Made by a program: the position numbers and the translations under genes
Notes under the pieces: generated by a model
What the model saw: only the letters and a program-made list of their open reading frames with translations
Database searches by the model: none
What the model was told of the DNA's origin: nothing
In this document: positions 869-64,000 of the stretch, piece by piece
Layout: the number at the start of each line of letters is the position of its first letter
Position numbering within the stretch: position 1 is the first letter of the stretch
Assembly (NCBI GenBank): GCA_016192425.1
Contig: JACPUE010000066.1
Span: forward strand, 99,306 to 163,305
Source of the DNA: Burkholderiales bacterium
GTDB taxonomy: Bacteria; Pseudomonadota; Gammaproteobacteria; Burkholderiales; Burkholderiaceae_C
Length of the DNA: 64,000 nt
Reading direction: 5' to 3'

Positions 869-1306
869 ATGAATAAAGCGCTAGCAGCTATCATTTTTGC
901 AGTGACTTCCGCCCCTTCATGGGCACAGATGACGCCGGAAGGCCTGTGGCGCAACGTCGATGACAAAACCGGCGAGGCCAAGGCCGAAATCCGCATCCAG
1001 GCCAACAATGCGGGTGTGCTGACCGGCGCCATCGAAAAGCGCCTGAGCAAGGAAGCCAAGCCTGAGGACGTCTGCAAGGAATGCGATGACGACCGCAAGG
1101 GCAAGCCGCTCCTGGGCCTGGAGATCATCCGTGGCGCCAGGAAGGCCGATGGCAAGGACGTGTGGGAGGGCGGCAAGATTCTCGACCCCGAGAACGGCCG
1201 CAACTACACGCTGCGCCTCACGCCCATTGAGGGTGGCAAAAAGCTCGAAGTGCGCGGCTCCATTGCCTTCATCGGCCGCACGCAGACCTGGGTGCGGGTG
1301 CAGTAA
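869..1306 (+). CDS. DUF2147-like small secreted protein
   Basis: ATG at 869 preceded by an AAGGAG RBS. N-terminal signal peptide MNKALAAIIFAVTSAPSWAQ. Lys/Glu-rich mature part. Confidence 0.6.
   Translation: MNKALAAIIFAVTSAPSWAQMTPEGLWRNVDDKTGEAKAEIRIQANNAGVLTGAIEKRLSKEAKPEDVCKECDDDRKGKPLLGLEIIRGARKADGKDVWEGGKILDPENGRNYTLRLTPIEGGKKLEVRGSIAFIGRTQTWVRVQ
872..905 (+). repeat. AT-rich palindromic motif copy (AAGCGCTAGCAGCTATC-W5-…); intragenic, within a signal peptide
   Basis: AATAAAGCGCTAGCAGCTATCATTTTTGCAGTG. Confidence 0.6.
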
Positions 1307-1336
1307 GGCGCCCGCCGATCAACAAGGAATGAACCA

Positions 1337-3736: not shown

Positions 3737-3737
3737 C

Positions 3738-4298
3738 ATGAACGCTGTAGCCACCCATTCCACCGCGCGGCCCAACCGGCTGGCCCGCACCATGGGTCAG
3801 CTCGACCGGGTGCCCGCCGTGGTGCGGCCCTGGGCGCGCAACCTGGTGCTGCGCCGCGCCGTGCCCTTCACCGGCACGGCAGGCCTGCAGTACCTGGAGC
3901 TCACGCCCCAGCGCGTGGAAGTGGCCGTGGCCAACCAGCGCCGGGTGCAGAACCATATCCACGGCGTGCATGCCGCCGCCATGACGCTGCTGGCCGAAAC
4001 CGCCACCGGCATGGTGGTGGGCATGAACGTGCGTGACGACTGCCTGCCCCTGGCCAAGGAGCTGCGCGTGGCCTTCAAGCGGCGCGCCCAGGGCGCCCTG
4101 CGCGCAGTGGCCACGCTCACCGACGAGCAGCGCGCGCTCATGCAGCAAAGCGACAAGGGCGAAGTCACCGTGGCCGTGCAGGTGAGCGACGAATCCGGCG
4201 CGCAGCCCATCGAGTGCGAATTCATCTGGGCCTGGGTGCCCGCCAGCAAGAGCAAAACCAGTGCCCCGGCGGCCCCTGCCGCCACACCCCAAAGGTAA
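3738..4298 (+). CDS. hotdog-fold thioesterase-like protein (DUF4442/YiiD_C-like)
   Basis: 186 aa. Lies between fadB and the thiolase gene. Composition is hotdog-like. Confidence 0.45.
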   Translation: MNAVATHSTARPNRLARTMGQLDRVPAVVRPWARNLVLRRAVPFTGTAGLQYLELTPQRVEVAVANQRRVQNHIHGVHAAAMTLLAETATGMVVGMNVRDDCLPLAKELRVAFKRRAQGALRAVATLTDEQRALMQQSDKGEVTVAVQVSDESGAQPIECEFIWAWVPASKSKTSAPAAPAATPQR

Positions 4299-4308
4299 GG
4301 ATCCCATC

Positions 4309-5502: not shown

Positions 5503-5544
5503 TCGGGTACTGCGCGGGCAACCGCGCGCAGCCCGTGCCACTGG

Positions 5545-8254: not shown

Positions 8255-8287
8255 AGGTTTTTGAACAAATTGGCCTCTGGGGCCCGT

Positions 8288-8326
8288 CAATAAAGCGTAA
8301 GCAGCTATCAAAATAATAGCAATTGC
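8288..8326 (+). repeat. AT-rich palindromic motif copy (intergenic)
   Basis: CAATAAAGCGTAAGCAGCTATCAAAATAATAGCAATTGC. Confidence 0.7.
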
Positions 8327-9508: not shown

Positions 9509-9518
9509 GGAGGTTTTT

Positions 9519-16518: not shown

Positions 16519-17274
16519 ATGAGCTGGGATTGGCAGGTGTTCTGCGAGGACACGCTGACAAGGGAGGCGACGCAAGGCTGCTTTGGAAAAGGCGGCGACA
16601 TCACCTACCTGGACTGGATGCTGTCGGCATGGGGCTGGACTGTGTCAGTATCGTTATTAGCGCTGGTGCTGGCATTGGTCGTGGGGTCGCTGGTCGGCAC
16701 CTTGCGCACCTTGCCGGACAGGCCCATGGCGGTGCGCCTGGGCAATGCCTGGGTGGAGCTGTTTCGCAACATCCCGCTGCTGGTGCAGATTTTTGTCTGG
16801 TACCACGTGGTGCCCACCCTGTTCCCGGTGATGCGGGGCGTGTCCGGCTTTGTGCTGGTGGTGCTGGCGCTGGGTTTCTTTACCTCGGCGCGCATTGCCG
16901 AGCAGGTGCGCTCGGGCATCCAGGCCTTGCCGCGCGGCCAGCGCTATGCGGGCATGGCCATGGGTTTCACCACCTTCCAGACCTACCGCTATGTGCTGTT
17001 GCCCATGGCGTTTCGCATCATCATTCCGCCGCTGACCAGCGAGACGATGAACATCTTCAAGAACTCCTCGGTGGCCTTTGCCGTGTCGGTGGCCGAGCTG
17101 ACCATGTTCGCCATGCAGGCGCAGGAAGAAACCTCGCGCGGCATCGAGGTGTACCTGGCCGTCACGGGCCTGTACGTTGTCTCGGCCTTTGCCATCAACC
17201 GCATCATGGCCTTCATCGAAAAGCGCTCGCGTGTGCCCGGCCTGATCGTCGCCGGTGGATCGGGAGGGCACTGA
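16519..17274 (+). CDS. gltJ: amino-acid ABC transporter permease
   Basis: Polar amino-acid permease fold with the EAA-like loop …ARIAEQVRSGIQALPRGQ…. Confidence 0.85.
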   Translation: MSWDWQVFCEDTLTREATQGCFGKGGDITYLDWMLSAWGWTVSVSLLALVLALVVGSLVGTLRTLPDRPMAVRLGNAWVELFRNIPLLVQIFVWYHVVPTLFPVMRGVSGFVLVVLALGFFTSARIAEQVRSGIQALPRGQRYAGMAMGFTTFQTYRYVLLPMAFRIIIPPLTSETMNIFKNSSVAFAVSVAELTMFAMQAQEETSRGIEVYLAVTGLYVVSAFAINRIMAFIEKRSRVPGLIVAGGSGGH

Positions 17275-28481: not shown

Positions 28482-29312
28482 TCAGCGGTGGTAGCGCAGC
28501 ACAGTGTCGTGCAACAGCGCATCCAGCGTGGCGTGACTGGGTACGGGCAGTGGCTGCACAGGCTCGGCCGCATTGCGGGCCAGCTCGGCTTCGATAAAGG
28601 CATGGATGCCGGACCAGCGGGGGCTGGTGGCAGCCTCGTCGGCGCGCATCTTTATCTCCAGCAGTGCGTTGATCTCATCGACCAGCGCAGCGTCGTGCAC
28701 GGGGTGCAGCGTGTGCTGGGCCAGCTCGGCAAAGCGCATGGGCGGCACGCCGGGTTGCGTGCGGATCCAGCGTGCGGCCAGCAGCGGGCGCAGCACGTAC
28801 AAGTACTTTTTGTAGCGCACCTCGTCAGCTTGCAAATGCTCGCGGAAGTTCTTCTTGGCCATGGCCGCGTAGTGGTGCCAGCCCTTGGCGTTGGAGAACA
28901 CCTGCGCCGCCAGCGTGCGGAACTGCGCCATCGTGTCACCCTCTTCGCGGTACACGATGGGCGAGCCCAGCCATTCGAGCAGCGTGGGGTTGGATTCGCG
29001 CAGCAGCCCCAGCGCCTTGCGCAGGTCCCAACCGTTCACATCCAGGTCCCCACTGATTGGCAGCTCGATCACATCACGCCCCGGCGCAATGGTCAGGTAC
29101 CAGGGCAGCCGGTGCACGTAGATAAAGCGCACGTCGTAGTCGCTGTCGGGTGAGGCAAAGCCCCAGCCCCGGCTGCCAGATTCGCAGGCGAAGAGGACTG
29201 TCACGCCGTGCGTGGACTCGATGCGCTGCAGCTCCTGCATCACCTGTGCGCGCATGTGGGGCTCCACCGGGTGGGAGGAGCGCAGCATTTCCTGTTGGTC
29301 TGTTTTTTGCAT
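28482..29312 (-). CDS. DNA polymerase beta-superfamily nucleotidyltransferase of the RNA-repair-associated family
   Basis: GS…D.D motif (ACESGSRGWGFASPDSDYDVRF). Confidence 0.65.
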   Translation of the reverse strand: MQKTDQQEMLRSSHPVEPHMRAQVMQELQRIESTHGVTVLFACESGSRGWGFASPDSDYDVRFIYVHRLPWYLTIAPGRDVIELPISGDLDVNGWDLRKALGLLRESNPTLLEWLGSPIVYREEGDTMAQFRTLAAQVFSNAKGWHHYAAMAKKNFREHLQADEVRYKKYLYVLRPLLAARWIRTQPGVPPMRFAELAQHTLHPVHDAALVDEINALLEIKMRADEAATSPRWSGIHAFIEAELARNAAEPVQPLPVPSHATLDALLHDTVLRYHR

Positions 29313-29317
29313 AAAAT

Positions 29318-29365
29318 GAGCTGTATCGCTTGTTGGATAAGCGCTTGAAGCTATCAAAAGTGTAG
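29318..29365. repeat. AT-rich motif, inverted pair (intergenic, between rtcB and the nucleotidyltransferase gene)
   Basis: GAGCTGTATCGCTT-GTTGG-ATAAGCGCTTGAAGCTATCAAAAG. Confidence 0.7.
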
Positions 29366-29408
29366 TGAGCCAATAGTGCGGTGCTGTCACCAGCGCCGCA
29401 CAGGGCGG

Positions 29409-30632
<1,224 letters not shown>

Positions 30633-30661
30633 ATCGTTTTTTCGTTCTTTCGTTTTTTTGT

Positions 30662-31402
30662 TCATTGAACCATTCCGCGCGCTGCGGCCTGGGCGTAGGT
30701 TTTCAGTTCATCGTCGTTCTTCACATTCCGGATGAAGGCATCCATGCGTGCCTGCAGTTCACCAGGGCGGTTCAGGTGCACTCCCTCGTGCCCGATCCCA
30801 TGCAACGCCGATACCTGTGCTTCGCGCCAAGGCATGGCCAGCATTGCGCAGAACACCTGCCACATTGCGTCGCGCCATTCGGGGATGTGCTTGGCATTCC
30901 AGAACGTGGGCCACACGTCAAACCACATGTAGCTCACGAAGTACAGCCGATCGCTTCGGCTTCCGATGGTGTTCGGCGCGGTGTCCAGGCGCGGGCCCAG
31001 GCAGTCGCGCCATAAAGTGGGCAGGGCCTGCACCATGCGCATCGCGTCGGCCAGGGGCACGGAAGGGTCGTTCACCATGTGCGGGATGTCTCCCGCGTTG
31101 TTGCTCATCACATGGTTCAGGCCCATGCCGACCTGATCGTCGCTGTAAGGCGCCAGGTCCGTTCCCGCATTGGCGAACAGCACGGTCTGGACGTGCGTCC
31201 ATTGCAGCGGCGTGGCTTCGAACTCCGGCTCGTCGATCAGCCAATACCACTCCTGCCCGCTCTTGTCGGGCACGGGGCGGTCGAACAGGTAGCGCAGGGC
31301 CGCGCTGTAGACCGCTGGATCCAGGCCGACAGATGCGCACGTGGCGGGTGTGGTGTCCCGCTGCAAACGCTTTTCTCTTGCAGTTGGTTTTTTGTTCTTC
31401 AT
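30662..31402 (-). CDS. hypothetical Trp-rich protein; no recognisable family
   Basis: 246-aa ORF directly upstream of rtcB on the same strand. Coding-like codon usage. Confidence 0.5.
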   Translation of the reverse strand: MKNKKPTAREKRLQRDTTPATCASVGLDPAVYSAALRYLFDRPVPDKSGQEWYWLIDEPEFEATPLQWTHVQTVLFANAGTDLAPYSDDQVGMGLNHVMSNNAGDIPHMVNDPSVPLADAMRMVQALPTLWRDCLGPRLDTAPNTIGSRSDRLYFVSYMWFDVWPTFWNAKHIPEWRDAMWQVFCAMLAMPWREAQVSALHGIGHEGVHLNRPGELQARMDAFIRNVKNDDELKTYAQAAARGMVQ

Positions 31403-32822: not shown

Positions 32823-33125
32823 CGGCGGGTGGTCTTTCGACCGGTACTTCCAATCAAGGTCTTGCGACCGTGGGCAGGAATCGAACCTGCGACAGACCCC
32901 TTGCGGGGGTTGCTCTACCAGACTGAGCTACCAGTGGTGACACGCCTGGAGTCGCACCGGGCACGTCCTTTCGGAGTGGCTACTGCAGCCGTGCCGTTAT
33001 CCAGCGCTTGCGGTGTGCGGCATGCAGGGCATCGACAGGGACCGAAGGCCCCGGACTTCCGGCACCGGCGGGGCGGACTTCTGTCCCAACCCCGGCCTGT
33101 GAGCGGTCACCGCTTGCGCTGGATG
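32823..33125 (-). ncRNA. Y-RNA (YrlA)-like non-coding RNA containing a tRNA-like module, transcribed from a sigma-54 promoter
   Basis: No credible ORF. GC-rich and highly structured. Contains a canonical D-arm and T-arm (see the 32868–32945 feature). Confidence 0.4.
32868..32945 (-). other. tRNA-like module (canonical D-arm and T-arm, non-canonical anticodon region, imperfect acceptor pairing)
   Basis: Minus-strand read: …CCACTGG-TA-GCTC-AGTCTGGTA-GAGC-A-ACCCCCGCAAGGGGT-CTGTC-GCAGG-TTCGATT-CCTGC-CCACGGT…. Confidence 0.5.
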
Positions 33126-38181: not shown

Positions 38182-38644
38182 GAAGCACGCCAGACCGCCG
38201 CTGGTGCAATCTGGGAAACCAGGCACTGGAGGAACGTCCGGACTGCACAGGACAGCGTAGCAGCTAACGGCTGCCCACCGTGAGGTGAGGATCAGAGCAA
38301 CAGAGACGAGTCCGAGCGTGGATGTGCCCATCGGGTGTTCTGCGGTTCGCCAGCGCAAGCTGGCGCGGCTGGCGCAAGCCAGACGGTGACGGGCGAAAGC
38401 CCGGCACGACGCAGCCACCCCGGGTGCGAAGCGCCCGGGGTGAAACGGGCAATCTCTACGCGCAGCAATACCAAGTAGGCCAGCCACGGGAGCAGGGCGA
38501 CCTCTCTCGACCTTGTGGATCCGCAGGGAGAGCTGGCGGGTAGGTAGCACCGAGCCGGGTGGGCGACCCCCGGCCCAGAGTAATGGCGGTCACGCTGCGG
38601 GCAACCGCAGTGCACAGAATCCGGCTTATCGGCGCGCTTCACAC
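38182..38644 (+). ncRNA. rnpB: RNase P RNA (bacterial type A)
   Basis: P4/universal elements are present: GGAGGAACGTCCGGAC…, GGGGTGAAACGGG…, ACAGAATCCGGCTTATCGG. A P1 helix pairs GAAGCACGCC with GGCGCGCTTC. Confidence 0.8.
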
Positions 38645-38664
38645 TTTACAAGCAAAAAATGGCT

Positions 38665-38709
38665 CCAACGCTTATGGAATAAGCGCTGGCAGCTATCATT
38701 TTTGAAATT
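38665..38709. repeat. AT-rich motif, inverted pair (intergenic, just 3' of rnpB)
   Basis: CCAACGCTTAT-GG-AATAAGCGCTGGCAGCTATCATTTTTG. Confidence 0.7.
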
Positions 38710-39898
38710 CTTGCGGGCAATGTGGCGCCTGCCCCTGCTGCAGCGCGCGGGCGCGCTCCACGGTGTCGGGGTGGCTGCTCAGCAGCGACCAGATCGGGTG
38801 CGCGGCCTCGGCGCGGCCCTGTTTTGGGGGCGCGGGCTGGCTGGCGCCGGGTGTCTTGCCCTTGCCTTCCTCTTCTTCGTCCTTGTCGTGCGCAATGGCC
38901 AGCAGCAGCGTGCCCATGGGCGCGGTGGGCAGGGCGGTGTGGCGCATGAGGCCGATGGCGAAGCAGTCGGCCTCGCGCTCGTGGTTGCGGCGGTAGTGCA
39001 GGCCGGTGAGCAGTGCGCTGCCCGTGGACAGCACGCCCGACACATCGCCCAGCGCCAGCCCCAAGCCCATTTGCAGCACGCCTTGCTCCACCACCATGCG
39101 CGTGGTGTGGCGGTGCACCACATGGCCGATTTCGTGCGCCAGCACGCCCACCAGCGCGTCGTCGTCCAGGCCCTGCCGGGCGGCGCTTTGCACCAGGGCG
39201 TCGGTCATCACCACCTGCCCGCCGGGCAGGGCGAAGGCGTTGGCGGGCATGCCGGAGCGGAACTCCAGCCGCAGCCGCGGCGCGTAGCCGGGGTAGCGCT
39301 GCAGCGCAGGCGGAATCTGCAGTGCCAGCGCATCAAAACGTGCACGCAGCTGGGCCTGGCGCTCGGGCGGCAGCTTGCTGGGCTTGAGCAGGCCATCGTC
39401 CATCTGCTGCAGGCCCTGGTCGGCCAGTGCGGTTTCCCAGCCCACAGGCACCCAGTGCGTGAGCTGCGTGGCCATCCACGGTGTGCCGTAGCGGTAGAAC
39501 AGGGTCAGCCCGATGGCGGCGGCCAGCAGCGCCGCCAGCAGCACGCTCCAGCGCGTCTGCATGTGCTGCGCCAGGCCGGGGCGTGCGCCCGCGGCGGCCA
39601 GGGCGGCGTGCCAGGCGGGCACGGCGTCAATCTCCAGGCTGCCGTGGTCGCGCAGGTCCACCACCACGCGCGCCTGGGGGCGGCGCGCGTTCCAGGCCTC
39701 GGGCCAACCCACGTCCTGGTGGGCAAACACCACCGGCGCCACGCCCGGCGCCGACAGCGGATGCAGGCTCAGCGACGGCCCCCGGGCCGTGGGCTGCAGG
39801 CCCACCAGCACCGGTCGAGCCTGGCTGCTGCGCCCATCAAACCAGTGCCCCGGCAGCAGGTCGCCGGGTGCGTTGGTGGATTGGTGAGAGCTGTTCAT
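38696..39898 (-). CDS. M48-family metallopeptidase
   Basis: HEIGHVVHRH motif with a downstream glutamate. Confidence 0.8.
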   Translation of the reverse strand: MNSSHQSTNAPGDLLPGHWFDGRSSQARPVLVGLQPTARGPSLSLHPLSAPGVAPVVFAHQDVGWPEAWNARRPQARVVVDLRDHGSLEIDAVPAWHAALAAAGARPGLAQHMQTRWSVLLAALLAAAIGLTLFYRYGTPWMATQLTHWVPVGWETALADQGLQQMDDGLLKPSKLPPERQAQLRARFDALALQIPPALQRYPGYAPRLRLEFRSGMPANAFALPGGQVVMTDALVQSAARQGLDDDALVGVLAHEIGHVVHRHTTRMVVEQGVLQMGLGLALGDVSGVLSTGSALLTGLHYRRNHEREADCFAIGLMRHTALPTAPMGTLLLAIAHDKDEEEEGKGKTPGASQPAPPKQGRAEAAHPIWSLLSSHPDTVERARALQQGQAPHCPQEFQK

Positions 39899-41275: not shown

Positions 41276-41361
41276 GGTCTCCCTCCAGGATGGCCGGGCA
41301 GTGTAGCAGTGGAGGGTGGATTGTGATTTGAAAGCGCTCGCAGGGCATGTATCCACAGCGT

Positions 41362-41386
41362 GGGCAGCTATGGTTTTTGATGGTGC
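41362..41386 (+). repeat. AT-rich motif, half copy (intergenic)
   Basis: GGGCAGCTATGGTTTTTGATGG. Confidence 0.45.
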
Positions 41387-41394: not shown

Positions 41395-41432
41395 CCCAGG
41401 CGCGCAGCGCCACAGGGGGGTGTCAGAATTTT
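41395..41432 (-). repeat. REP-like repeat, short terminal fragment
   Basis: Only …GCGCAGCGCCACAGGGGGGTG…. It sits next to an AT-rich motif copy. Confidence 0.5.
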
Positions 41433-42208
41433 TCCCAGGGCTGCAGGTAGCGCCACTGCCCTTCGGGCACCTTGGCCAGCGGCACGCGGCCGATGCGGAT
41501 GCGCTTGAGGGACAGCACCTGCAGGCCCACGGCCTCGCACATGGCCGGGATCTGGCCGGGGCGGATGCCCTTGAGTGCGAAGCGCAGCCGCGTTTCGTTC
41601 TGCCAGCTCACCTTGATGGGGGGCAGCGGCCGGCCGTTGAACGAGAGGCCATGGCAGAGCTTCTGCAGACCGCCTTCTGCGATCTGGCCTGCCACCTCGG
41701 CGATGCATTCCTGCTCCAGCGTTTCGATGTCCTCGGCCAGCTTGCGCGCGATGCGCTTGTCCTGCGTGTAGACCACGAGCCCGCTGGCCGGGGTGGGCAG
41801 CGGTGTGAAGCATTCAAGCTGCTTGAAATGGCGCAGCAGCACGCGGATGCCCGCGGCATCCTCGGGCAGGTGGCTCTGCGCGTTCAGCAGCGTGAGGGCG
41901 GAGGGTGCGCCCTGGCTGCGGCTGCCATGCGCGGCTGCGCCCGCGTCCAGCCCCAGCCCCGCTTCATAGCCCGGCGGCTTGTGCAGCAGCAGGGTGACGG
42001 GGGTGAGCGCCAGCAGGCTGGCGTCTTTCTCTACCGTCACCGCCTGGCCGGGGCGCACGCGTGCGCCAGGGAGTTCCACCACCTGGCCTTCCACGCGCAC
42101 AAAGCCGCCTTCGATGTACTGCTCGGCGGTGCTGCGCGAGCAGGCCAGTTGTTCGGCCACACGTTTGGCCAGGCGGATGTGGCTGGGGTCAGGGTTCTTG
42201 TCGGTCAT
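41423..42208 (-). CDS. rRNA pseudouridine synthase (RsuA/RluB family; S4 domain plus catalytic domain)
   Basis: S4-like N-terminus and the conserved …LLHKPPGY… segment. Confidence 0.75.
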   Translation of the reverse strand: MTDKNPDPSHIRLAKRVAEQLACSRSTAEQYIEGGFVRVEGQVVELPGARVRPGQAVTVEKDASLLALTPVTLLLHKPPGYEAGLGLDAGAAAHGSRSQGAPSALTLLNAQSHLPEDAAGIRVLLRHFKQLECFTPLPTPASGLVVYTQDKRIARKLAEDIETLEQECIAEVAGQIAEGGLQKLCHGLSFNGRPLPPIKVSWQNETRLRFALKGIRPGQIPAMCEAVGLQVLSLKRIRIGRVPLAKVPEGQWRYLQPWEKF

Positions 42209-42229: not shown

Positions 42230-43894
42230 TCAGTTGTTGCCGGGCTGCTGCGCGCGGATGCGCTCCACATGCGCGATCAGCGAGCGCTGGGCCAGCGGCC
42301 ACATGCGTGGCGGCACGTCGGCGTAAGCCAGTTCCACCCACTGCTCCACCGTGCCTTCGGGCAGTGCCTGCATGGCGGCGATGACCTTGGCCTCGCGCGC
42401 CAGGCGGTGGCCCTTGAGCTGGGCGATGGCGCCGCGTGCCTCGCCCAGCACATGGCCGTGCGCGGGCAGGATGAACGCCACGCCGTGTTCGGCGCAGAGC
42501 GCATCGAGCCGGTCGAGCGCGTCGAGGTAGTCGGCCATGTTGCCGTCGGGCGGGTTGATGATGGTGGTGCTGCCGTTGAGGATGTGGTCGCCACTGAACA
42601 GCAGGCCGTCCTCGCGCAGCAGCAGGCACACATGGTTGGCCGCGTGGCCCGGCGTGTGCACCACCTGCAGGGTGTGGGTGATTTCGCCGTCCAGCCCTTT
42701 GCCAGTAAGCGTGAGCAGCTCATTGTTTGATAGCGCCCGGTCGGGCGTGAACTGGCTGTCAGCGCGCGCCGTGGGGGCCGAGGGCAGGCCCAGGATGGGC
42801 GGCGTGGCGCGGCCCGCGCGCTGGCACATCTGCTGCAGCGGCTTGCTGCCTGGCGAGTGGTCGGGGTGCGAATGCGTGCATACGATCATGCGGATGTCGC
42901 CGCCCGCGGCGCGCCACAGGCGCTCCAGGTGCTCGACGTCTGCCGGGCCGGGGTCGATGGCGACGTAGCCCGTGGCCGGGTCGCCCACCAGGTAGCTGTT
43001 GGTGCCGGGGCCGGTCATCACGCCGGGGTTGGGGGCGGTCAGGCGCTGCACGTTCTTCAGCAGCGGCACGGCGCGCTCGCTCTGCCAGTCGAGCGGGTGG
43101 GCGATCTGCCCGTCGGGGCAAACCAGGGCCAGCTCGCCGAAGGGCATTTCGTCCTCCATGTAGCGCGCTTCCTTGCCATTGAGCAGGCCCGCGCGCGGGC
43201 AGCTCGTCCACAGCGGGGCTTCGCTCACGGCGCAGGCGGCCAGCACATCGTCCACGCGCGCGAAGGGCGCCAGCCGCTGCAGCGTGCGGATGGTCGGGAA
43301 GATCATGAAGAAGCCGCCGCCCGCGTGGCGCTCCAGGGCGTCCTGCGGGCGCACCCATTGGGGCTCGAACTGCTCGGCCTCGTCGGCCACGGGCGTCTGG
43401 CCTTCGGGCATGCGCGCCACCAGAAACGGCACATCAAAGCGCTTGGGCAGGTCGCGGTCGGTGATCCAGCGCGCCAGGGTGAACACCCCGTCGGCGGCCA
43501 GCCGCAGGCCGCGCGCCTGGCATTGTGCGGCGAACGGGGCCTGGCGGTCGAGCGCGGCGATGTCGTCGGCCCCGGCCCAGCGGCCATCGGCATGGCGCGC
43601 CAGCAGCACGCCCAGCTCCTCGAAGCTCTCGCGGATGGCGGCAATGGCCTCGGTGAGCTGTTCGTCGCCCTGCGTGGCGCGGCGTGCGGCGGCGTGGTGC
43701 GATTGTGTGTCCAGCGCGTCGATGCCGCCGCCGGGGAACACGTAGGCGCCCGGCGCAAAGCTGGCTTGCTGCGAGCGCCGCGTCATCAGCACCTCCAGCC
43801 CCTGCGCGCCATCGCGCAGCAGCAGCACGGTGGCGGCGTTCAGGGTGGGGACGGGGGGGCGGGGCGGGTGCAGGAGCTGGCTGGGGCGTGTCAT
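42230..43894 (-). CDS. NUDIX hydrolase fused to an MBL-fold metallo-hydrolase
   Basis: Nudix box …AIRESFEELGV…. C-terminal HSHPDH and HTPGH motifs. Confidence 0.7.
   Translation of the reverse strand: MTRPSQLLHPPRPPVPTLNAATVLLLRDGAQGLEVLMTRRSQQASFAPGAYVFPGGGIDALDTQSHHAAARRATQGDEQLTEAIAAIRESFEELGVLLARHADGRWAGADDIAALDRQAPFAAQCQARGLRLAADGVFTLARWITDRDLPKRFDVPFLVARMPEGQTPVADEAEQFEPQWVRPQDALERHAGGGFFMIFPTIRTLQRLAPFARVDDVLAACAVSEAPLWTSCPRAGLLNGKEARYMEDEMPFGELALVCPDGQIAHPLDWQSERAVPLLKNVQRLTAPNPGVMTGPGTNSYLVGDPATGYVAIDPGPADVEHLERLWRAAGGDIRMIVCTHSHPDHSPGSKPLQQMCQRAGRATPPILGLPSAPTARADSQFTPDRALSNNELLTLTGKGLDGEITHTLQVVHTPGHAANHVCLLLREDGLLFSGDHILNGSTTIINPPDGNMADYLDALDRLDALCAEHGVAFILPAHGHVLGEARGAIAQLKGHRLAREAKVIAAMQALPEGTVEQWVELAYADVPPRMWPLAQRSLIAHVERIRAQQPGNN
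42706..42738 (+). repeat. AT-rich motif copy inside the NUDIX–MBL gene
   Basis: AGTAAGCGTGAGCAGCTCATTGTTTGATAGCGC. Confidence 0.6.
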
Positions 43895-43907
43895 GAAGGC
43901 ATTATGA

Positions 43908-44034
43908 GCACCCCCCTGAGCGGCTGCGCCGCTTCCCCCCGCTCTCGCCTCGCGTTGCGAGGCGGGCAGGGGGACGCCGCCGGTGCGGCGGGGCGGCCCT
44001 TGCACGGCGGCCCTGGCCTGGAGCACGCCGGTAG
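43908..44034 (+). repeat. REP-like repeat, copy 5
   Basis: Same consensus. Confidence 0.8.
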
Positions 44035-44070
44035 CATGCGCTGTGGACGATGCGTGTCGATGGGCGGAAT

Positions 44071-44775
44071 TCAGCCTCGTGCCGGAATCTCCAGCCCGCG
44101 CTGCACGGCCGGCCGCTCGACGAAGGCCGCCAGCGCGCGCTGCACCTGCGGGAAGCGGTCGAACTCCACCAGTTCGCCCGCGCCATAAAAGCCCACCAGG
44201 TTGCGCACCCAGGGGAAGATGGCGATGTCGGCAATGGTGTATTCGTCGCCCATGACCCAGCGGCGGCCCGCCAGGCGCTGCTCCAGCACGCCGAGCAGGC
44301 GTTTGGATTCGGCCACGTAGCGGTCGCGCGGGCGCTTGTCCTCGTAGTCCTTGCCCGCGAACTTGTGGAAGAAGCCGAGCTGGCCGAACATCGGCCCCAC
44401 GCCGCCCATCTGCCACATCAGCCATTGCAGCGTCTCGAAGCGCGCGGTGGTGTCTGCGGGCAGAAAGCGCCCGCTTTTGCTCGCCAGGTACACCAGGATG
44501 GCGCCCGACTCGAACAGCGCAAAGGGTTTGCCGTCCGGGCCGTGCGGGTCGATGATGGCGGGGATCTTGTTGTTCGGGTTGAGCGAGAGGAACTCGGGCG
44601 AGAGCTGGTCGTTGGTATCGAAGCTCACCAGGTGCGGCTCGTAGGGCAGGCCGGTTTCCACCAGCATGATCGACACCTTCACGCCGTTGGGCGTGGGCAG
44701 GGAGTAGAGCTGGATGCGGTCCGGGTGCTGGGGCGGCCATTTGCGGGTGATGGGGAAAGCGCTCAGGTCATTCAT
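44071..44775 (-). CDS. glutathione S-transferase (Nu/YghU-like)
   Basis: GST N- and C-terminal domains. Confidence 0.8.
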
Positions 44776-44854
44776 CGGAAAGCTCCTTGCGGAAAAAACA
44801 CAGCCGGACAAGGCACCGTGCCACGGTGCGGCGACAGCTACGATAATCCAAGCC

Positions 44855-45733
44855 ATGCAGATCCGCTTTACCAAGATGCAGGGTGCGGGCAATGACTTTG
44901 TCGTGCTCGACGAGACCCAGGAACGCCTGGGGCTCACGCCCGCGCATTACCGCTTTCTGGCCGACCGCCACTTCGGCGTGGGGGCCGACCAGATCCTGAC
45001 CGTGCGCCCCGCGCCTGCGCCGGGCCTGGACTTTGAATACGTGATCCACAACGCCGACGGCGGCGAGGTGGAGCAGTGCGGCAACGGCGCGCGCTGCTTT
45101 GCGCGCTATGTGCGCGACAAGGGGCTCACCGCCAAGGACCGCATCCGCGTGCAGACGCTGTCGGGCGTGATCGCACCCGAACTCACCCCCGACGGCCGCG
45201 TCACCGTGGACATGGGCCGCCCGCAGTTCGACCCGGCGCGCGTGCCCTTCGACGCTGCAGGCCTGGTGCCCGTGCCCCAGGGTTTGGGGCAAAAATGGCC
45301 TCTTGCGCTGGATGGGCAAGCGCAGGCAGCTACTGTTTTGATAGCGGTTGTCTCGATGGGCAACCCGCATGCCGTGCAACTGGTGGAGGACGTGGACACC
45401 GCCCCGGTGGCGCAGACCGGCCCGCTCATCGAGTGCCACACCCGTTTTCCGCAGCGCGTGAACGCGGGCTACCTGCAAGTGGTGGACCGCAGCCATGTGC
45501 GCCTGCGCGTGTACGAGCGCGGTGCGGGCGAAACCCTGGCCTGCGGTACCGGCGCCTGCGCGGCCGTGGCGGCGGGCATCCGCCTGGGGCTGCTCGATGC
45601 GCGCGTGGACGTGCAGACGCGCGGCGGCCTGGTCACCATCGCCTGGAGCGGCCAGGAGGCCGACTCCGTGTTCCTCACCGGCCCCGCCGTGACCGTGTTC
45701 GAAGGCCAGATCGACATTCCCGACGCACCATGA
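44855..45733 (+). CDS. dapF: diaminopimelate epimerase
   Basis: Collinear with E. coli DapF (…GNDF…VVSMGNPH…CGTGACA…). Confidence 0.9.
45301..45347 (+). repeat. AT-rich motif copy inside dapF
   Basis: CTTGCGCT…CAAGCGCAGGCAGCTACTGTTTTGATAGCGG. Confidence 0.6.
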
Positions 45734-47620: not shown

Positions 47621-48841
47621 ATGAAAACGATCCGACTCAAGCCCGGCAAAGAGCGCTCGCTGCAGCGCCGCCATCCCTGGATTTTTGAAAGCGCCATCGC
47701 CAAGGGCGGCGGCGACAGTGGCGAGACGGTGCGCGTGGAGTCGCACGAGGGCCAGTTTCTGGCCTGGGCGGCGTTCAGCCCGAGTTCGCGCATCCGAGCG
47801 CGGGTGTGGAGTTTTGACGAAGCGCAGCGTATTGATGCTCCGTTTTTTGTAGCTGCTTGCGCTCGTGCAGTAAGCGCTAGAGCCCGGTTTGATATACAAA
47901 GCGACGGTGTGCGCCTGGTGCACGGCGAGTCGGACGGTCTGCCCGGTCTGGTGGTGGACCGCTATGGCGACACGCTGGTCGCGCAGTTCACCAGCGCGGG
48001 CACGGAGCGCTGGAAGGGCGTGCTGGCCGATGCGCTCTTGCAGGCCACGGGCCTGGCGCGCCTGTACGAGCGCTCGGACGCCAGCGTGCGCCAGCTCGAA
48101 GGGCTGGAGAGCAGCACCGGCTGGCTGCGCGGCGGCCCGGCGGCCGGGGGTGAGGCGCCCCCGCTGGAGTTGGCGATCCACGAGCACCAGTGGCTTCTCA
48201 CGCTCAACATCGCCGAGGGCCACAAGACCGGTTTCTACCTGGACCAGCGCGACAGCCGCAAGCGTTTTGCCGACTGCGTGCAGCGCCTGGGGCTGCGCCG
48301 TGTGCTCAACTGCTATTGCTATACCGGGGGCTTTTCGGTGGCGGCGCTGGCGGGCCAGCGCGCGGCCGGGGTGGAGGACGGCGAGGTGGTGTCCATCGAC
48401 TCGTCTGGCCCGGCGCTGGAGCGCGCGCGCGCGCATGTGGCACTCAATGGCTTCGACGCCGCGCGTGCCACGTTTCTGGATGCCGACGTGAACGCCTCGC
48501 TGCGCCAGTTTCTGCGCGAAGGGCGGCGCTTTGACGCCATCGTGCTCGACCCGCCGAAGTTCGCCCCCACGGTCACGCACGCCGAACGCGCCGCGCGCGC
48601 CTACAAGGACATCAACCGCCTGGCGCTGCAGCTGCTGGAGCCCGGCGGTGTGCTCTACACCTTCTCGTGCTCGGGCGGCATCAGCGCCGACCTGTTCCAC
48701 AAGATCGTCGCATCGGCCGGGGCCGATGCCGGGGTGGATGGCTATATCCTGGAGCGCCTGGGTGGGGCGCCCGACCACCCCATGACACTGGAATTCCCCG
48801 AAGGGGAATACCTCAAGGGCCTGGCCGTGATGCGCAAGTGA
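47621..48841 (+). CDS. rlmI: 23S rRNA (cytosine1962-C5)-methyltransferase
   Basis: Collinear with E. coli RlmI (…HKTGFYLDQRD…RVLNCYCYTGGFSV…DPPKF…). Confidence 0.85.
   Translation: MKTIRLKPGKERSLQRRHPWIFESAIAKGGGDSGETVRVESHEGQFLAWAAFSPSSRIRARVWSFDEAQRIDAPFFVAACARAVSARARFDIQSDGVRLVHGESDGLPGLVVDRYGDTLVAQFTSAGTERWKGVLADALLQATGLARLYERSDASVRQLEGLESSTGWLRGGPAAGGEAPPLELAIHEHQWLLTLNIAEGHKTGFYLDQRDSRKRFADCVQRLGLRRVLNCYCYTGGFSVAALAGQRAAGVEDGEVVSIDSSGPALERARAHVALNGFDAARATFLDADVNASLRQFLREGRRFDAIVLDPPKFAPTVTHAERAARAYKDINRLALQLLEPGGVLYTFSCSGGISADLFHKIVASAGADAGVDGYILERLGGAPDHPMTLEFPEGEYLKGLAVMRK
47842..47897. repeat. AT-rich motif, inverted pair inside rlmI (in-frame)
   Basis: TTTTTTGTAGCTGCTTGCGCT-CGTGC-AGTAAGCGCTAGAGC…GGTTTGATATAC. 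Uses codons atypical for the host. Confidence 0.65.
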
Positions 48842-48846
48842 GCACG

Positions 48847-48897
48847 AATGCTATAAAAATAATAGCTGCTTGCGCATGATGTGAAAGCGCTAGAGGC
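48847..48897. repeat. AT-rich motif, inverted pair (intergenic, between rlmI and zigA)
   Basis: GCTATAAAAATAATAGCTGCTTGCGCATGATG…GAAAGCGCTAGAGGC. Confidence 0.7.
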
Positions 48898-48994
48898 ACA
48901 AATCACTCAAATTTCATACAGCCCCTGCGCACAGGGGCTTGACAGCTCGGCTACAGTTTTTGGGTTGTCTCCCGAATTTCTCCCAAGGCTTCTC

Positions 48995-53503: not shown

Positions 53504-53513
53504 GTACACTGAG

Positions 53514-53553
53514 TTGCTATTGAATTGATAGCTGCTTGCGCTTGATTGACGGG
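53514..53553 (-). repeat. AT-rich motif copy (intergenic, between hslV and hslU)
   Basis: Reverse complement CCGTCAATCAAGCGCAAGCAGCTATCAATTCAATAGCAAC is nearly identical to the copy at 8288. Confidence 0.75.
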
Positions 53554-53585
53554 CGCTATGTACCGATTTGATTGGAATTTTCTCC

Positions 53586-60127: not shown

Positions 60128-61545
60128 CGGGCATGACCTTGCAGCAGGTTTTCGCCTGGATCGAGTCGCGCGAGCCGCGTGCGCGCCTGGTGGGCGATGG
60201 TGCCACGCCCCTGGCGCGCGTGCACACCGACACGCGCACCCTGCAGGCGGGCGACCTGTTCGTGGCCCTGCGCGGCGAGCGCTTTGACGCCCACGACTTC
60301 CTGGCCCAGGCCCGTACCAGCGGCGCCGTGGCCGCCATTGCCGAGCGCGGACTGCAGGCCGCTGGGCTGCCCGGCATCGAGGTGCCCGACAGCCTGCAGG
60401 CCCTGGGCCACCTGGCCGCCGCATGGCGCGCGCAATTCAGCCTGCCCTTGATCGCGGTGACCGGCAGCAACGGCAAGACCACGGTCACCCAGATGATTGC
60501 CGCCATCCTGCAGGCCCACGCGCAGCAGGCTGCGTTTGCCACGCGCGGCAACCTCAACAATGCCATCGGCGTGCCGCAAACCCTGCTGCGCCTGAACGCC
60601 ACGCACCGCGTGGGCGTGGTCGAGCTGGGCATGAACCACCCCGGCGAAATCGCCCTGCTGGCGCGCATCGCCCAGCCCACCGTGGCCCTGGTGAACAACG
60701 CGCAGCGCGAGCACCTGGAGTTCATGCACACCGTGCAGGCCGTGGCCGAAGAAAACGGCTCGGTGCTGGCTGCGCTGCCCATGGATGGCGTGGCCGTGTT
60801 CCCGGCGGGCGATGCCTACACCGCGCTGTGGCAGGGCCTGGCGGCCGGGCGGCGCTGCATCACCTTTGGCGGCGCGGGGGCCGACGTGCGCTGCACCCAG
60901 GCCCAGTGGCAGGGCGGCGCCTGGCAGGTCACCCTGGCCACGCCGCAGGGGCCGCTGGCCTGCGCGCTGCACATTGCGGGCCGCCACAACGTGACCAACG
61001 CACAGGCTGCCGCGGCCTGCGCACTGGCGGCCGGTGTGCCGTTGCAGGCCATTGCGCGCGGCCTGGGCGCGTTCGCGCCGGTCAAGGGCCGCTCGCGCGC
61101 GCTGGGCGTGCGCTGCGGCGAGCGCACCGTCACCGTGGTGGACGACAGCTACAACGCCAACCCCGACTCCATGCACGCCGCCATCGAGGTGCTGGCCGAA
61201 CTGCCCGCGCCGCGCCTGCTGGTGCTGGGCGACATGGGCGAGGTGGGCGACCAGGGGCCGCAGTTCCACGCCGAGGCCGGCGCCCATGCCCGCGCACGCG
61301 GCATCGAGCGGCTGTACGCGCTGGGCCCGTCGTCGCAGCACGCCGCGCAGGCCTTTGGAACGGCCACGCATTTTGACGACATGGCATCGCTCCTGGCGGC
61401 GGTGCGGCAGGCGCTGCCCGAGGTGGGCAGCGTGCTGGTGAAGGGATCGCGATTCATGAAGATGGAACAAGTGGTGGAGGCGCTGGCCCCCGCCGCGCAA
61501 GCCGCCGCAGCGGCGCAGGAGGCCGGCCATGGCACGACGCATTGA
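60124..61545 (+). CDS. murF: UDP-N-acetylmuramoyl-tripeptide–D-alanyl-D-alanine ligase
   Basis: GSNGKTT P-loop. Position after murE is conserved. Confidence 0.9.
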   Translation: MTGMTLQQVFAWIESREPRARLVGDGATPLARVHTDTRTLQAGDLFVALRGERFDAHDFLAQARTSGAVAAIAERGLQAAGLPGIEVPDSLQALGHLAAAWRAQFSLPLIAVTGSNGKTTVTQMIAAILQAHAQQAAFATRGNLNNAIGVPQTLLRLNATHRVGVVELGMNHPGEIALLARIAQPTVALVNNAQREHLEFMHTVQAVAEENGSVLAALPMDGVAVFPAGDAYTALWQGLAAGRRCITFGGAGADVRCTQAQWQGGAWQVTLATPQGPLACALHIAGRHNVTNAQAAAACALAAGVPLQAIARGLGAFAPVKGRSRALGVRCGERTVTVVDDSYNANPDSMHAAIEVLAELPAPRLLVLGDMGEVGDQGPQFHAEAGAHARARGIERLYALGPSSQHAAQAFGTATHFDDMASLLAAVRQALPEVGSVLVKGSRFMKMEQVVEALAPAAQAAAAAQEAGHGTTH

Positions 61546-61560
61546 TGTGGGAGGTGCCCC

Positions 61561-62739
61561 ATGCTGATGTGGCTGGCCCAATGGCTGCAGGGGCTGTCGC
61601 CCGAGTTCGGGTTCTTGCGCGTGTTCCAGTACCTCACGCTGCGTGCGGTGCTGGGCGCCATGACGGCGCTGCTCATCGGTCTTCTGGCCGGGCCTGCCGT
61701 GATCCGGCGGCTGACGGCGCTGAAGATCGGGCAGCCCATCCGCACCAACGGCATGGAAACGCACCATGTCAAAAGCGGCACGCCCACCATGGGCGGCGTG
61801 CTCATTCTGCTGGCCATTGCCATCTCCACCCTGCTGTGGGCCGACCTGTCCAACCGTTTTGTCTGGATCGTGCTCATCGTCACGCTGGGCTTTGGCGCCA
61901 TCGGCTGGGCCGACGACTGGCGCAAGGTGGTCTACAAAGACCCCAACGGCATGCCCTCGCGCGAGAAGTACCTGTGGCAGTCGCTCATCGGGCTGGCGGC
62001 GGCGCTGTACCTGGTGTTCAGCATTTCGGAAAGCTCCAACCTCAAGGTGCTGGAGCTGTTCTTTTCGTGGGTGCGATCAGGGTTTGACGTGAACCTGCCC
62101 CCCAAGGCGGGCCTGCTGGTGCCGTTCTTCAAGGAGGTCAGCTACCCGCTGGGGGTGCTGGGCTTCGTCATCCTGACCTACCTGGTCATCGTGGGCTCCA
62201 GCAACGCGGTCAACCTGACGGACGGCCTGGACGGCTTGGCCATCATGCCCGTGGTCATGGTGGGCTCGGCGCTGGGCGTGTTTGCCTACGTGGCGGGCAG
62301 CGCGGTGTATTCCAAATACCTGTTCTTCCCGCACATTCCGGGCGCGGGCGAACTGCTGATCTTCTGCTCCGCCATGGCGGGCGCGGGCCTGGCCTTCCTG
62401 TGGTTCAACACGCATCCGGCGCAGGTGTTCATGGGCGACGTGGGCGCGCTGGCGCTGGGCGGTGCCCTGGGCACCATTGCCGTCATCGTGCGCCAGGAAA
62501 TCGTGCTGGCCATCATGGGCGGCATCTTCGTGGTCGAGGCGCTGTCGGTCATGCTGCAGGTGAGCTGGTTCAAGTACACCAAGCGCAAGTACGGCGAAGG
62601 CCGGCGCCTGCTCAAGATGGCGCCGCTGCACCACCACTTCGAGAAAAACGGCTGGAAGGAAACGCAGGTGGTCGTGCGTTTCTGGATCATCACCATGCTG
62701 CTGTGCCTCATCGGCCTGTCCACATTAAAACTGCGATGA
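61561..62739 (+). CDS. mraY: phospho-N-acetylmuramoyl-pentapeptide transferase
   Basis: Ten-TM protein with …[13 protein letters not shown]…. Confidence 0.95.
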
Positions 62740-64000
62740 ATCCGCTGGACGAGCCGCTCCCCCCACCCGCCGAAGGCGTGCCTGCCGAGGCTGCGCCCGC
62801 CACGGCCCCGGCGCCCCAGCACGAGCTGCCGCAAACCCTGGACGCCGCGCGCGAGGCCGCGGCCTTTGTGGCGCGCATCTTTGCCGAGACGCCGGTGTCC
62901 GAACCCGGTGCAGACGCCGCCGAGCCCGCAGCGCCCGAGCCTGCGGCCGAGGAACAGACCGCTGCTTCAGACCCCGTGCCCGCAGGCTGGCCGTTGGGGG
63001 GCGGCAAGCTCCTGCAGGACCAGGCCGTGCTGGTGCTGGGCCTGGGCGCGTCGGGCCTGGCCATGGCGCGCTGGTGCGTGCGCTGCGGCGCCCAGGTCAC
63101 CGTGGCCGACACGCGCGAGGCGCCGCCGCAACTGGCGCAGCTGCACGCCGAACTGCCGCAGGCACGCTTTGTGGCCGGAGCCTTTACCGAGGCCTTGCTC
63201 GACGGCGCAGCCTACAGCGCGGTGTACCGCTCGCCCGGCCTGGCACCGCAGGCCATTGCTCCTATTTTTATAGCTGCTAGCGCACGTGGAATAAGCGTTG
63301 GCGGCGAAATTGACCTGTATTCCAGCGCCCTGCATGCGCTGCGCGCTGCCCATGGCTACGCGCCCGCCGTGCTGGCCATCACCGGCACCAACGGCAAGAC
63401 CACGGTGACCTCGCTCACCGGCAAGCTGGTGGCGCATGCGGGCAAGTCGGTGGCGGTGGCAGGCAACATCGGCCCCACGCTGCTGGACACCCTGGCCGAG
63501 CGCATCGACGCAGGCCAGCTGCCCGAAGCCTGGGTGCTGGAGCTGTCGAGCTTTCAGCTGGACGGCGTGCGCGGCTTCGAGCCCACGGCGGCGGCGGTGC
63601 TCAACGTCACCCAGGACCACCTGGACTGGCACGGCGACATGGCCGCCTACGCCGCCGCCAAGGCACGCATCTTTGGCGAGCAGGCCCTGATGGTGCTCAA
63701 CCGCGACGATGCGCTGGTGATGCACATGCTGCCGCCGCCCGGCCGCCCGAAGGCGGCAGCAGCCCCCTTGGGGGGCAGCGCAGCACACGCAGTGGCAAGC
63801 GTGGGGGCGCCGTCCATGCCGCCGCCAGTGAGGCAGAGGCTGCAAAAGGCACAGCACCGCGCCCATGTGACCTTTGGCGCAGACATGCCGCAGCGGCCGG
63901 GCGATTTCGGCATCGAGGCCGTCAACGGCATGGCCTGGCTGGTGCGCGCGCAGGAGGCCGACGAAACCCTGCGCCGCAGCAAGAACGCCGAGGAGGAGCT
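62736..64000 (+). CDS. murD: UDP-N-acetylmuramoylalanine–D-glutamate ligase, with a ~95-aa Pro/Ala-rich N-terminal extension (3' end lies outside the window)
   Basis: GTNGKTT P-loop. The ATG overlaps the mraY stop. Confidence 0.85.
63258..63305. repeat. AT-rich motif, inverted pair inside murD (in-frame)
   Basis: CCTATTTTTATAGCTGCTAGCGCA-CGTGG-AATAAGCGTTGGCGGC. Confidence 0.65.

Follow-up and report, generated by a model that had tools for sequence, protein, structure and literature searches.

Dispersed AT-rich palindromes of the Comamonadaceae: an apparently undescribed repeat family found between genes, within genes, and in phages and plasmids

What are the AT-rich palindromic sequences that recur, between genes and within them, in the GC-rich DNA of a Burkholderiales bacterium, and how might they have come to be there? 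The stretch that raises this question, ‘the window’ in what follows, comprises 64,000 nucleotides (assembly GCA_016192425.1, contig JACPUE010000066.1, positions 99,306 to 163,305 of the forward strand). An earlier note, made from the letters of this stretch alone, described a motif of about 30 bp, sometimes arranged as inverted pairs, and likened it to the DNA-uptake sequences of other bacteria or to a genome-wide protein-binding or architectural signal. We find that this motif is one arm of a larger unit, a single imperfect palindrome of 65–70 bp, and that the unit belongs to a repeat family dispersed throughout the Comamonadaceae and found also in plasmids and phages. The interpretation we prefer, with a confidence somewhat better than even, is that this is an undescribed, Comamonadaceae-specific family of non-coding AT-rich palindromes, which is old, resembles the repetitive extragenic palindromic (REP) and enterobacterial repetitive intergenic consensus (ERIC) sequences of other bacteria, and is now mostly decaying, with some copies exapted. 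The copies that lie inside genes fit this interpretation least comfortably, and we return to them at length.

The consensus of the unit is ATTTCAAGCCAAATCGGCCTCYAGCGCTT-N7-AAGCGCTRGCAGCTATCAAWWNNRTAGC, and the motif first noticed is the right arm of it. The supposed inverted pairs are the two arms of one palindrome, so that single and paired sites differ only in how far one and the same element has decayed. Taken as a single strand, the consensus folds into three hairpins on either strand (z -4.8 and -4.1 relative to shuffled sequences): a small one, GCC-W5-GGC (W = A or T); a main stem, AGCGCTT/AAGCGCT, that extends outward; and a second small one, GCTAT-W7-ATAGC. Conservation was scored on 37 copies that lack the search pattern, and is therefore free of ascertainment bias. 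It is concentrated in discrete boxes—AGCGCTT, AAGCGC, (GC)AGCTAT (the GCAGCTAT box) and a terminal AGC—and the variable parts are the 7-nt loop and two W-rich tracts. Beside the main stem, most copies have a box reading (G)ATAGC; a few have GTAGC instead. Identity to the consensus averages about 70%, and there is no invariant core.

To count copies in the window independently of the sites first listed there, we ran an nhmmer profile built from 84 full copies, all of them from other genomes and obtained by scanning one representative genome per species for AAGCGCNNGCAGCTATC. The profile finds eight full copies (E 1e-10 to 4e-15) and one half copy (E 2e-9), that is, nine copies in 64 kb or about one per 7 kb (Table 1). 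The 17-mer core of the motif gives seven matches in the window at three or fewer mismatches, against 0.11 expected from shuffled sequences. The W5-GATAGC sub-pattern by itself occurs five times where 0.8 are expected, which we grade as not above chance. The earlier list of sites thus survives in large part: nine copies are solid, those at 41362 and 42706 are eroded relics, since better copies occupy the same places in the related locus L250, and those at 16642 (gltJ) and 55029 find no support from the independent profile. It follows that the intragenic copies reported in rlmI, murD, dapF and the signal peptide of the DUF2147 gene stand, that the NUDIX–metallo-beta-lactamase gene holds a relic only, and that gltJ must be struck off. 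The observation that copies are tolerated within open reading frames (ORFs), and force AT-rich codons that are otherwise rare there, was correct.

Table 1. Copies and relics of the repeat in the window, and the inverted repeat bracketing the REP-associated tyrosine transposase (RAYT) gene in other loci
Feature	Sequence	Positions	Strand	Match and fold	Context
Half copy (right arm, GCAGCTATC box, T tract)	Window	864..914	+	Model positions 25-75; E 2.1e-9; exact 17-mer match	Overlaps start of DUF2147 gene (869-1306; Pfam E 2.8e-26); its codons give signal peptide MNKALAAIIF
Full copy	Window	8258..8326	+	E 6.3e-13; GCGCCC left-arm variant; fold z +0.1 / -0.6	Fills spacer from enoyl-CoA hydratase gene (ends 8254) to thioesterase gene (starts 8354), both + (Pfam)
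Full copy	Window	29312..29372	+	E 1.1e-10	Antisense to transcription; spacer between rtcB (29409-30665, -) and RlaP-family gene (-) (Pfam RtcB, RlaP), the latter's likely ATG near 29313 by sequence reading
Full copy, best preserved	Window	38646..38717	+	50.8 bits; E 4e-15; fold z -3.4 (+), -4.3 (-)	Immediately 3' of RNase P RNA (38182-38644, +); overlaps stop of convergent M48 peptidase gene (38696-39898, -); left A tract, right T tract; 11-bp stem then AGCCATTTTT; sole copy called terminator-like
Eroded relic	Window	41335..41378	+	E 0.3 (profile seeded with the earlier note's sites), E 3-5 (independent profile)	Just downstream of S4-domain gene (41423-42208, -); same place in L250: 33.5-bit copy, 2735-2803
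Eroded relic	Window	42678..42720	+	14.4 bits; E ~1e-3	Inside NUDIX–metallo-beta-lactamase fusion gene (42230-44740, -; Pfam); L250 orthologue: 4170-4217, 23.7 bits, E 2.7e-6
Full copy in dapF	Window	45283..45350	+	41.2 bits; E 4e-12	dapF frame about 44852-45733 (+); encodes 23 residues just before SMGNPH motif
Full copy in rlmI	Window	47831..47899	-	38.6 bits; E 2.8e-11	rlmI frame about 47621-48841 (+); encodes PFFVAACARAVSARARFDIQS
Full copy in rlmI–cobW spacer	Window	48842..48912	-	47.5 bits; E 4.7e-14	Directly follows rlmI stop codon, upstream of cobW-like gene
Full copy in hslV–hslU spacer	Window	53508..53577	-	47.6 bits; E 4e-14; mRNA-strand fold z -3.7	Fills spacer from 5 nt past hslV stop to a few nt short of hslU ATG
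Full copy in murD	Window	63249..63319	-	41.0 bits; E 4.8e-12	murD frame from about 62742, runs off window; encodes 22 residues
RAYT inverted repeat	L251	2464-2474, 3295-3305
RAYT inverted repeat	L252 and L253	2479-2489, 3296-3306
RAYT inverted repeat	L032	719-729

The family extends well beyond the window, and its range is restricted. As a signal, the motif is real, abundant and family-wide. Every one of the 81 loci from the genome scan that carry a Comamonadaceae title matches the extended family, and so do all 19 loci with vaguer titles (Burkholderiales, or Proteobacteria metagenome-assembled genomes (MAGs)); the 20 loci from other phyla have the search pattern alone, with no extended match. 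Named sources comprise Acidovorax, Paenacidovorax, Diaphorobacter, Comamonas, Ottowia, Giesbergeria, Simplicispira, Alicycliphilus, Polaromonas, Rhodoferax, Rubrivivax MAGs and Ca. Aalborgicola. Over 747 kb of other genomes, copies not picked by the search pattern occur about once per 10 kb, a density that extrapolates to several hundred copies per genome. The window itself comes from a Burkholderiales MAG close to Giesbergeria and Simplicispira. Among viral contigs in IMG/VR, 66 of the 120 pattern-bearing loci contain extended copies. Some of these are in bona fide phage regions: one directly follows the gene for an Ant anti-repressor, another lies within a RecE-like gene, and a third position is the C-terminal tail of a large terminase. 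Related phages have the copy at the same place, 87% conserved versus 59% for its flanks. In one group of related phage contigs (L190, at 1112-1180, L225, L231 and L233), the large terminase ORF has a near-consensus copy (52–57 bits) as its C-terminal tail. This copy, better conserved than the sequence on either side, lies just upstream of the next gene, and the portal gene starts some 700 bp further on. A blastn search of the GenBank phage collection gave no match, and one of plasmids gave only four, all of them in Comamonadaceae; for a query of 67 nt and an identity of 70%, such searches are not very sensitive. One of these, in NZ_CP049911.1 at 107812-107876 (L246, 3001-3067), is a near-consensus copy of 61.6 bits that has the annotated stop codon (TGA) of cobN in its loop and the start of the coding sequence for a TonB-dependent receptor at its last bases. 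Both gene boundaries are thus supplied by the repeat. The top-scoring copies of all (56–62 bits) occur in phage and plasmid DNA.

The absence of any earlier description, also claimed in the note, held up. Rfam 15 at its gathering thresholds has no match in the window at the copies, and a permissive Rfam scan of eight loci with near-consensus copies returns nothing at those copies. The window's only matches in Rfam and ARAGORN are the class A RNase P RNA (38182-38644, +, 165 bits) and a tRNA-Cys (GCA) (32866-32938, -). Literature searches found no published description of the repeat, and full-text searches, both for the string of its sequence and for competence or uptake sequences in Comamonadaceae, found nothing relevant. 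One repeat known from Bordetella and Comamonadaceae, BRE, is a tandem element of 75–91 bp and 69% GC (Hot et al. 2011, PMC3110155), quite unlike the AT-rich dispersed repeat, and we rejected it as the identity of the family. Surveys of GTAG/CGTC repeats (PMC3733652) and of RAYT genes (PMC2817692) do not mention these genera. The repeat family is apparently undescribed.

Where relatives can be compared, copies prove to be inherited and to wear away. The copies in rlmI and between hslV and hslU are found at the same places in L090, L123 and L247–L250, whose RlmI proteins are 84–97% identical to that of the window; the comparison with related genomes that had been proposed therefore finds the motif in them. 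The copy in the rlmI–cobW spacer is present in the window, L247, L248, L249 and L121, and not in L250, L123, L124, L125 or L090, and intergenic copies in general show up as length differences between relatives. No new insertions were found in four relatives over about 20 kb each. Orthologous copies keep their arms, and their loops and W tracts vary or flip. In the hslV–hslU orthologues (L247 15836-15908, L248 7200-7267, L249 16024-16097 and L250 15794-15864), for example, the GCTAT/ATAGC and GCGC arms are kept, and the loops and W tracts alternate between A-rich and T-rich from one close relative to the next. Family-wide, k-mers in the loop are about as common as their reverse complements (TCCA 19, TGGA 14). 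This parity led us to reject neutral saturation as the reason that the loop looks random, and because it suggests flips, we do not use the loop as a clock. Taken with the changes of polarity in orthologues whose arms are kept, it suggests that the hairpin loops may be flipped by hairpin-mediated inversion rather than altered by point change. Decay shows also in folding: only two of the eight full copies in the window, 38646-38717 (both strands) and 53508-53577 (mRNA strand), fold better than shuffled sequences, the other six do not, and most copies here are degenerate. As judged from at most nine copies per genome, the family appears to be old, vertically inherited and slowly lost, and not to be proliferating at present.

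The copies occupy particular positions with respect to genes. Among 56 intergenic copies with confident neighbors, 41 lie between co-oriented genes (17 in the sense orientation and 24 antisense), 13 between convergent genes, and two between divergent ones; copies therefore avoid spacers that hold only promoters, and their orientation is independent of transcription. Of the 156 copies scored, 131 (about 84%) are outside ORFs and 25 (about 16%) are in long ORFs that are GC-rich at third codon positions. These coding copies use both orientations and all reading frames, and many of their hosts are recognizable housekeeping genes. In an Acidovorax facilis MAG (L104, 5576-6796, -), a single ORF contains two copies in opposite orientations (58 and 45 bits); this ORF could be EarP-like, a guess from its sequence. 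The idea that copies at gene 3' ends look like terminators holds for one of them. A GC-rich stem-loop followed by a U tract is found, among the window copies, only at 38646-38717, next to rnpB, which with an A tract to its left and a T tract to its right is likely a bidirectional intrinsic terminator. The other intergenic copies are mostly not canonical terminators.

How might such a family have arisen? We suppose that the repeat spread long ago by a form of copying that leaves no target duplication, carried out perhaps in trans by a host HUH enzyme (Y1, ‘RAYT’), or perhaps by template switching between copies. Afterwards copies would have been inherited vertically, retained where useful and eroded elsewhere. 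The rnpB copy may have been kept as a bidirectional terminator, and the hslV–hslU copy as a stable intercistronic hairpin; others would contribute stop codons or start regions, a signal peptide or parts of proteins. What the sequences show directly is the family, its anatomy and taxonomic range, where its copies lie in genomes, and that these are inherited vertically and erode; the past mobility of the repeat, the enzyme that mobilized it, and any function in RNA or DNA are things that we infer. Left and right flanks share k-mers no more often than a shuffled control (k = 4–8, 87 copies), and this lack of a detectable target-site duplication fits copying of the HUH or the template-switch kind.

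A motif scan of all of the DNA we fetched found one Y1/HUH transposase gene, in L032 (PF01797; NCBI name ‘REP-associated tyrosine transposase’). Relatives of its protein, about 230 residues long and 62–75% identical, are named from Ottowia, Polaromonas, Curvibacter, Caenimonas and Ramlibacter, and orthologues of the gene are conserved in Comamonadaceae. In Ottowia sp. 5N485 (L251), a repeat copy of 33.6 bits starts at the stop codon of the RAYT gene, and there is no copy upstream; two further Ottowia contigs (L252 and L253) have a decayed copy at the same RAYT-adjacent place. Since the density of the repeat allows one adjacent copy by chance, we treat the link to RAYT as a lead and not as a result. 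The RAYT gene lies just upstream of gltB, for the large subunit of glutamate synthase, in the three Ottowia contigs. In L251, four tandem units resembling GCTATTTGGGGTCT occupy 2417-2470, directly upstream of the RAYT gene, and the pentamer GCTAT is common to them and to the repeat family.

Several observations weigh against an REP-like family with an RAYT-type origin, and we gather them here. The RAYT gene is bracketed not by the repeat but by an 11-bp inverted repeat of another kind, GGGGTCAGATY ... RATCTGACCCC (Table 1), and this is not itself dispersed: GGGGTCAGATY has no match in the window, and the fetched loci hold only the RAYT sites and a few singletons. The repeat lacks a clear GTAG/CGTC tag, a trait of REP sequences. 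It lacks terminal inverted repeats, its two ends not being inverted copies of each other, and all sampled copies are single units, with no inverted doublets or arrays of the bacterial interspersed mosaic element (BIME) type. Two copies from one genome resemble each other just as much as two from different genomes (identity 0.605 versus 0.601, with at most nine copies sampled per genome). Non-orthologous pairs in the genome-scan set are at most 82% identical (6441 pairs), and viral copies with unrelated flanks at most 79%; within the same limit of nine copies per genome, there is accordingly no sign of recent copying. One consensus serves more than 10 genera, whereas REPINs differ from species to species. 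On the side that transcription reaches last, T runs are just mildly more frequent (21 versus 13 of 37), and runs of at least four T are found there in 13 of 37 copies in tandem contexts, versus seven of 37 on the other side. Finally, the stem pairs are nearly invariant, and those that vary pair as often as the composition of their columns predicts, with a weak association at pair 22/44 only. The alignment thus neither proves nor disproves selection for folding, and selection at the level of structure is unproven. Two apparent patterns were rejected: covariation in the stem (CCAG/CTGG), for which the counted pairing frequency was that same compositional prediction apart from pair 22/44, and an excess of C-A over G-T mismatches as a pointer to the folding strand, since the search pattern fixes positions 37–42.

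The main difficulty, however, lies inside genes. A clean in-frame insertion of the repeat would add 22–24 residues to a protein, but the coding copies we examined change protein length by 0 to +11 residues, and native residue patterns are kept. RlmI of the window aligns with E. coli RlmI/YccW (PDB 3c0k) with no gap across the repeat and a 3-residue gap just after it. MurD of the window is longer by two residues than P. aeruginosa MurD (8dp2, TPALVQAAAKGVRISGDIDL), with the conserved motif kept. Ornithine transcarbamylase (OTC, ArgF; L078) gains three, PurL (L077) seven, YihE/SrkA (L007) 10, and DapF of the window, compared with DapF in the PDB, 11. Within the repeat stretch, the native YEIEVNGQ of DapF appears as WPLALDGQ, and SAPFYQVF of OTC as SAGSYQFF; YihE retains ELIAA, and the MurD protein of the window retains the pattern of its counterpart, GVRISGDIDL. 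Such copies are therefore not simple insertions, and it would seem instead that coding sequence was replaced or molded in place. Candidate processes are template switching between hairpin-forming copies and targets that resemble them by chance, or a directional drive. Such an overlay of coding sequence at almost unchanged length is what one would expect of a signal acting at the DNA level, be it a binding site under selection or a drive of the uptake type, and among REP, ERIC, the miniature inverted-repeat transposable elements (MITEs) and the Rickettsia palindromic elements (RPEs) there is no ready precedent for coding copies of this kind. That the repeat was written over existing DNA rather than inserted into it, by short-patch templated conversion or by uptake-type or other molecular drive, is, in our view, rather unlikely.

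The rival that survives best generalizes this idea to the whole family: a directional process, again uptake-type drive or short-patch templated conversion, would have built up the motif where it stands, with no insertion, and native sequence would be molded toward it wherever the protein allows. Apart from the lengths and residue patterns of the coding copies, it can draw on relatives that encode much the same peptide without the motif. At the rlmI site, the peptide of L124, FFIAACARAIIARARF, is near-identical to that of the window, FFVAACARAVSARARF; L124 and L122, which do not match the profile, use GC-rich codons for a peptide that is the same or nearly so. L125 is intermediate, and L121 has a different peptide of equal length. 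The dapF peptides of L250 and L125, likewise in GC-rich codons, are within two residues of the length in the window. The star-like shape of the family, in which every genus shares a single consensus and no genome has a subfamily to itself, the lack of target duplications, and the use of both orientations and all reading frames suit this rival too. Yet the seven-taxon rlmI gene tree fits an ancestral repeat decaying to GC-rich codons under GC pressure as well as it fits repeated gains. A unit of 65–70 bp with three hairpins far exceeds any known uptake signal, copies are found only once per 7–10 kb, and only about 16% are in ORFs. Many copies are eroding, at a mean consensus identity of 70%, which continuing drive should prevent; near-consensus copies occur in phages, where there is little time for molding by point mutation; and intergenic copies appear as differences in length. 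We think accumulation in place rather unlikely.

Could the repeat instead be the binding site of a conserved DNA-binding protein of the Comamonadaceae, for example a nucleoid-associated or IHF-like protein, a BIME binder of the gyrase type, or RAYT itself, so that selection acts on its sequence and not on its folding? Separate conserved boxes (AGCGCTT, AAGCGC, GCAGCTAT and the AGC at the end), with the loop and W tracts free to vary, would be expected of such a site, and the inverted boxes with their 7-nt spacer resemble the site of a dimer. The stems show no compensatory variation, orientation is independent of transcription, and in orthologues the boxes persist while the loops change. Against this, the binding protein is putative. 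The avoidance of divergent promoter spacers, and clustering after genes, point to constraints linked to transcription; the loss of one box, as seen in many copies, has had no visible effect; and box-wise conservation is equally expected of a hairpin recognized by an HUH enzyme. A protein-binding site is, in our estimation, quite unlikely. Least probable is a MITE or REPIN that is currently active, mobilized by a transposase or RAYT and inserting in frame into genes as well: the patchy presence of the rlmI–cobW spacer copy, the phage and plasmid copies (the highest-scoring ones among them) and the RAYT-like gene of the family with its abutting copy in Ottowia might be read that way, but near-identical non-orthologous pairs, target duplications, terminal inverted repeats and new insertions in about 20 kb of each of the four relatives were all sought and not found, with at most nine copies sampled per genome. 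Coding copies add far too few residues, and in related phages the copies occupy orthologous positions.

An old family of REP- or ERIC-like palindromes thus remains the interpretation we favor, and it is instructive to set it beside the systems it resembles. With REP/BIME and REPIN-RAYT systems (E. coli, Pseudomonas and Stenotrophomonas) the repeat shares the form of short, imperfect palindromes, hundreds to a genome (here by extrapolation), mostly extragenic, placed after genes or between cistrons in both orientations without target duplication, and the presence of an RAYT-type Y1 gene in the Comamonadaceae. It differs in that REP sequences are 20–40 bp long, whereas this unit is tripartite and 65–70 bp long; that an ATAG(C) box stands in place of the GTAG/CGTC tag; that inverted doublets, BIME arrays and near-identical copies are missing from the small sample taken per genome; that REPINs are species-specific whereas here one consensus spans more than 10 genera; and that the RAYT gene is bracketed by a different repeat. 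ERIC sequences are dispersed, imperfect palindromes in transcribed intergenic spacers, with one consensus across genera; they are diverged, mostly immobile, and patchy at orthologous spacers. They are about 127 bp long, have terminal inverted repeats, give TA duplications in Yersinia, and are not reported inside ORFs. In dispersal, cross-genus consensus, divergence and patchy presence, the ERIC or intergenic repeat unit (IRU) sequences of Enterobacteriaceae and Vibrio are a close parallel, but there is no relationship of sequence, and the repeat here matches no Rfam family and enters ORFs.

The comparison with the DNA-uptake sequences (DUS) of Neisseria and the uptake signal sequences (USS) of Pasteurellaceae, which the earlier note had put forward, is attractive in some respects. 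These, too, are family-wide motifs, in both orientations, that yield tolerated peptides in coding sequence and have AT-rich flanks beside a GC-rich core. They enter coding sequence by substitution, without insertions or deletions; at the six coding copies examined here the net change is 0 to +11 residues, with either gain or decay of the motif as its possible source. Uptake sequences are, however, 10–12 bp long, or 9 bp with a flank of about 20 bp; their core is near-invariant, they recur roughly every kb, and many of them are in ORFs. The repeat is 65–70 bp long (versus 9–30 bp), occurs once per 7–10 kb, matches its consensus at 70%, lies outside ORFs in 84% of copies, and is present in phages as well. 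In view of its size, its density, the lack of an invariant core, and the few copies in ORFs even though ORFs fill most of the genome, the reading as DUS or USS is unsupported. RPEs are likewise palindromic repeats translated in frame within housekeeping genes, but they are clean insertions of 30–50 residues, whereas here the net gain is 0–11 and native residues are kept. Mycobacterial interspersed repetitive units (MIRUs) are intercistronic and carry the stop and start codons of their neighbors, as do the copies between cobN and the TonB-dependent receptor gene in L246 and between hslV and hslU; MIRUs are tandem units of the variable-number type and not palindromes.

Two further features of the window may be noted. 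Beyond the copy in the rlmI–cobW spacer, at 48925-48965, a hairpin, CAGCCCCTGCGCACAGGGGCT, is followed by a promoter-like TTGACAGC-N5-GCTACAGT upstream of the cobW-like gene. Both are found in L121, L123 and L247–L250 as well, and the promoter-like motif recurs, partly degenerate, in those relatives with room for it; it may be a regulated promoter, possibly of the Zur type. Upstream of the conserved Rossmann start of MurD, LVLGLGASG, the murD frame is open for some 85 codons rich in Pro, Ala and Glu (62742-63000), which could extend the protein at its N terminus with low-complexity sequence, or could be untranslated and open by chance.

Comamonadaceae (Acidovorax, Comamonas, Diaphorobacter, Ottowia and others) are major bacteria of wastewater, soil and plant-associated habitats. 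A repeat present in their genomes in several hundred copies affects annotation, through false extensions of ORFs, calls of starts and stops, and odd codon usage; it can serve as a family-specific marker; and at some loci it probably has a part in determining where transcripts end and how polar an operon is. If overwriting were to prove correct, then murD, dapF, rlmI, argF and purL would each have gained a 65-bp AT-rich palindrome with length and key residues unchanged, by a route into coding sequence that is new for a dispersed repeat, and the repeat could represent a ‘self’ or uptake signal of a long, structured kind, the first in the Comamonadaceae. The question it raises is whether dispersed palindromes spread by insertion only, or also by templated overwriting or drive. 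Repeat families of this sort are ordinary in themselves; what is unusual about this one is how it behaves within coding sequence, and how stable it has been throughout a bacterial family and the phages of that family.

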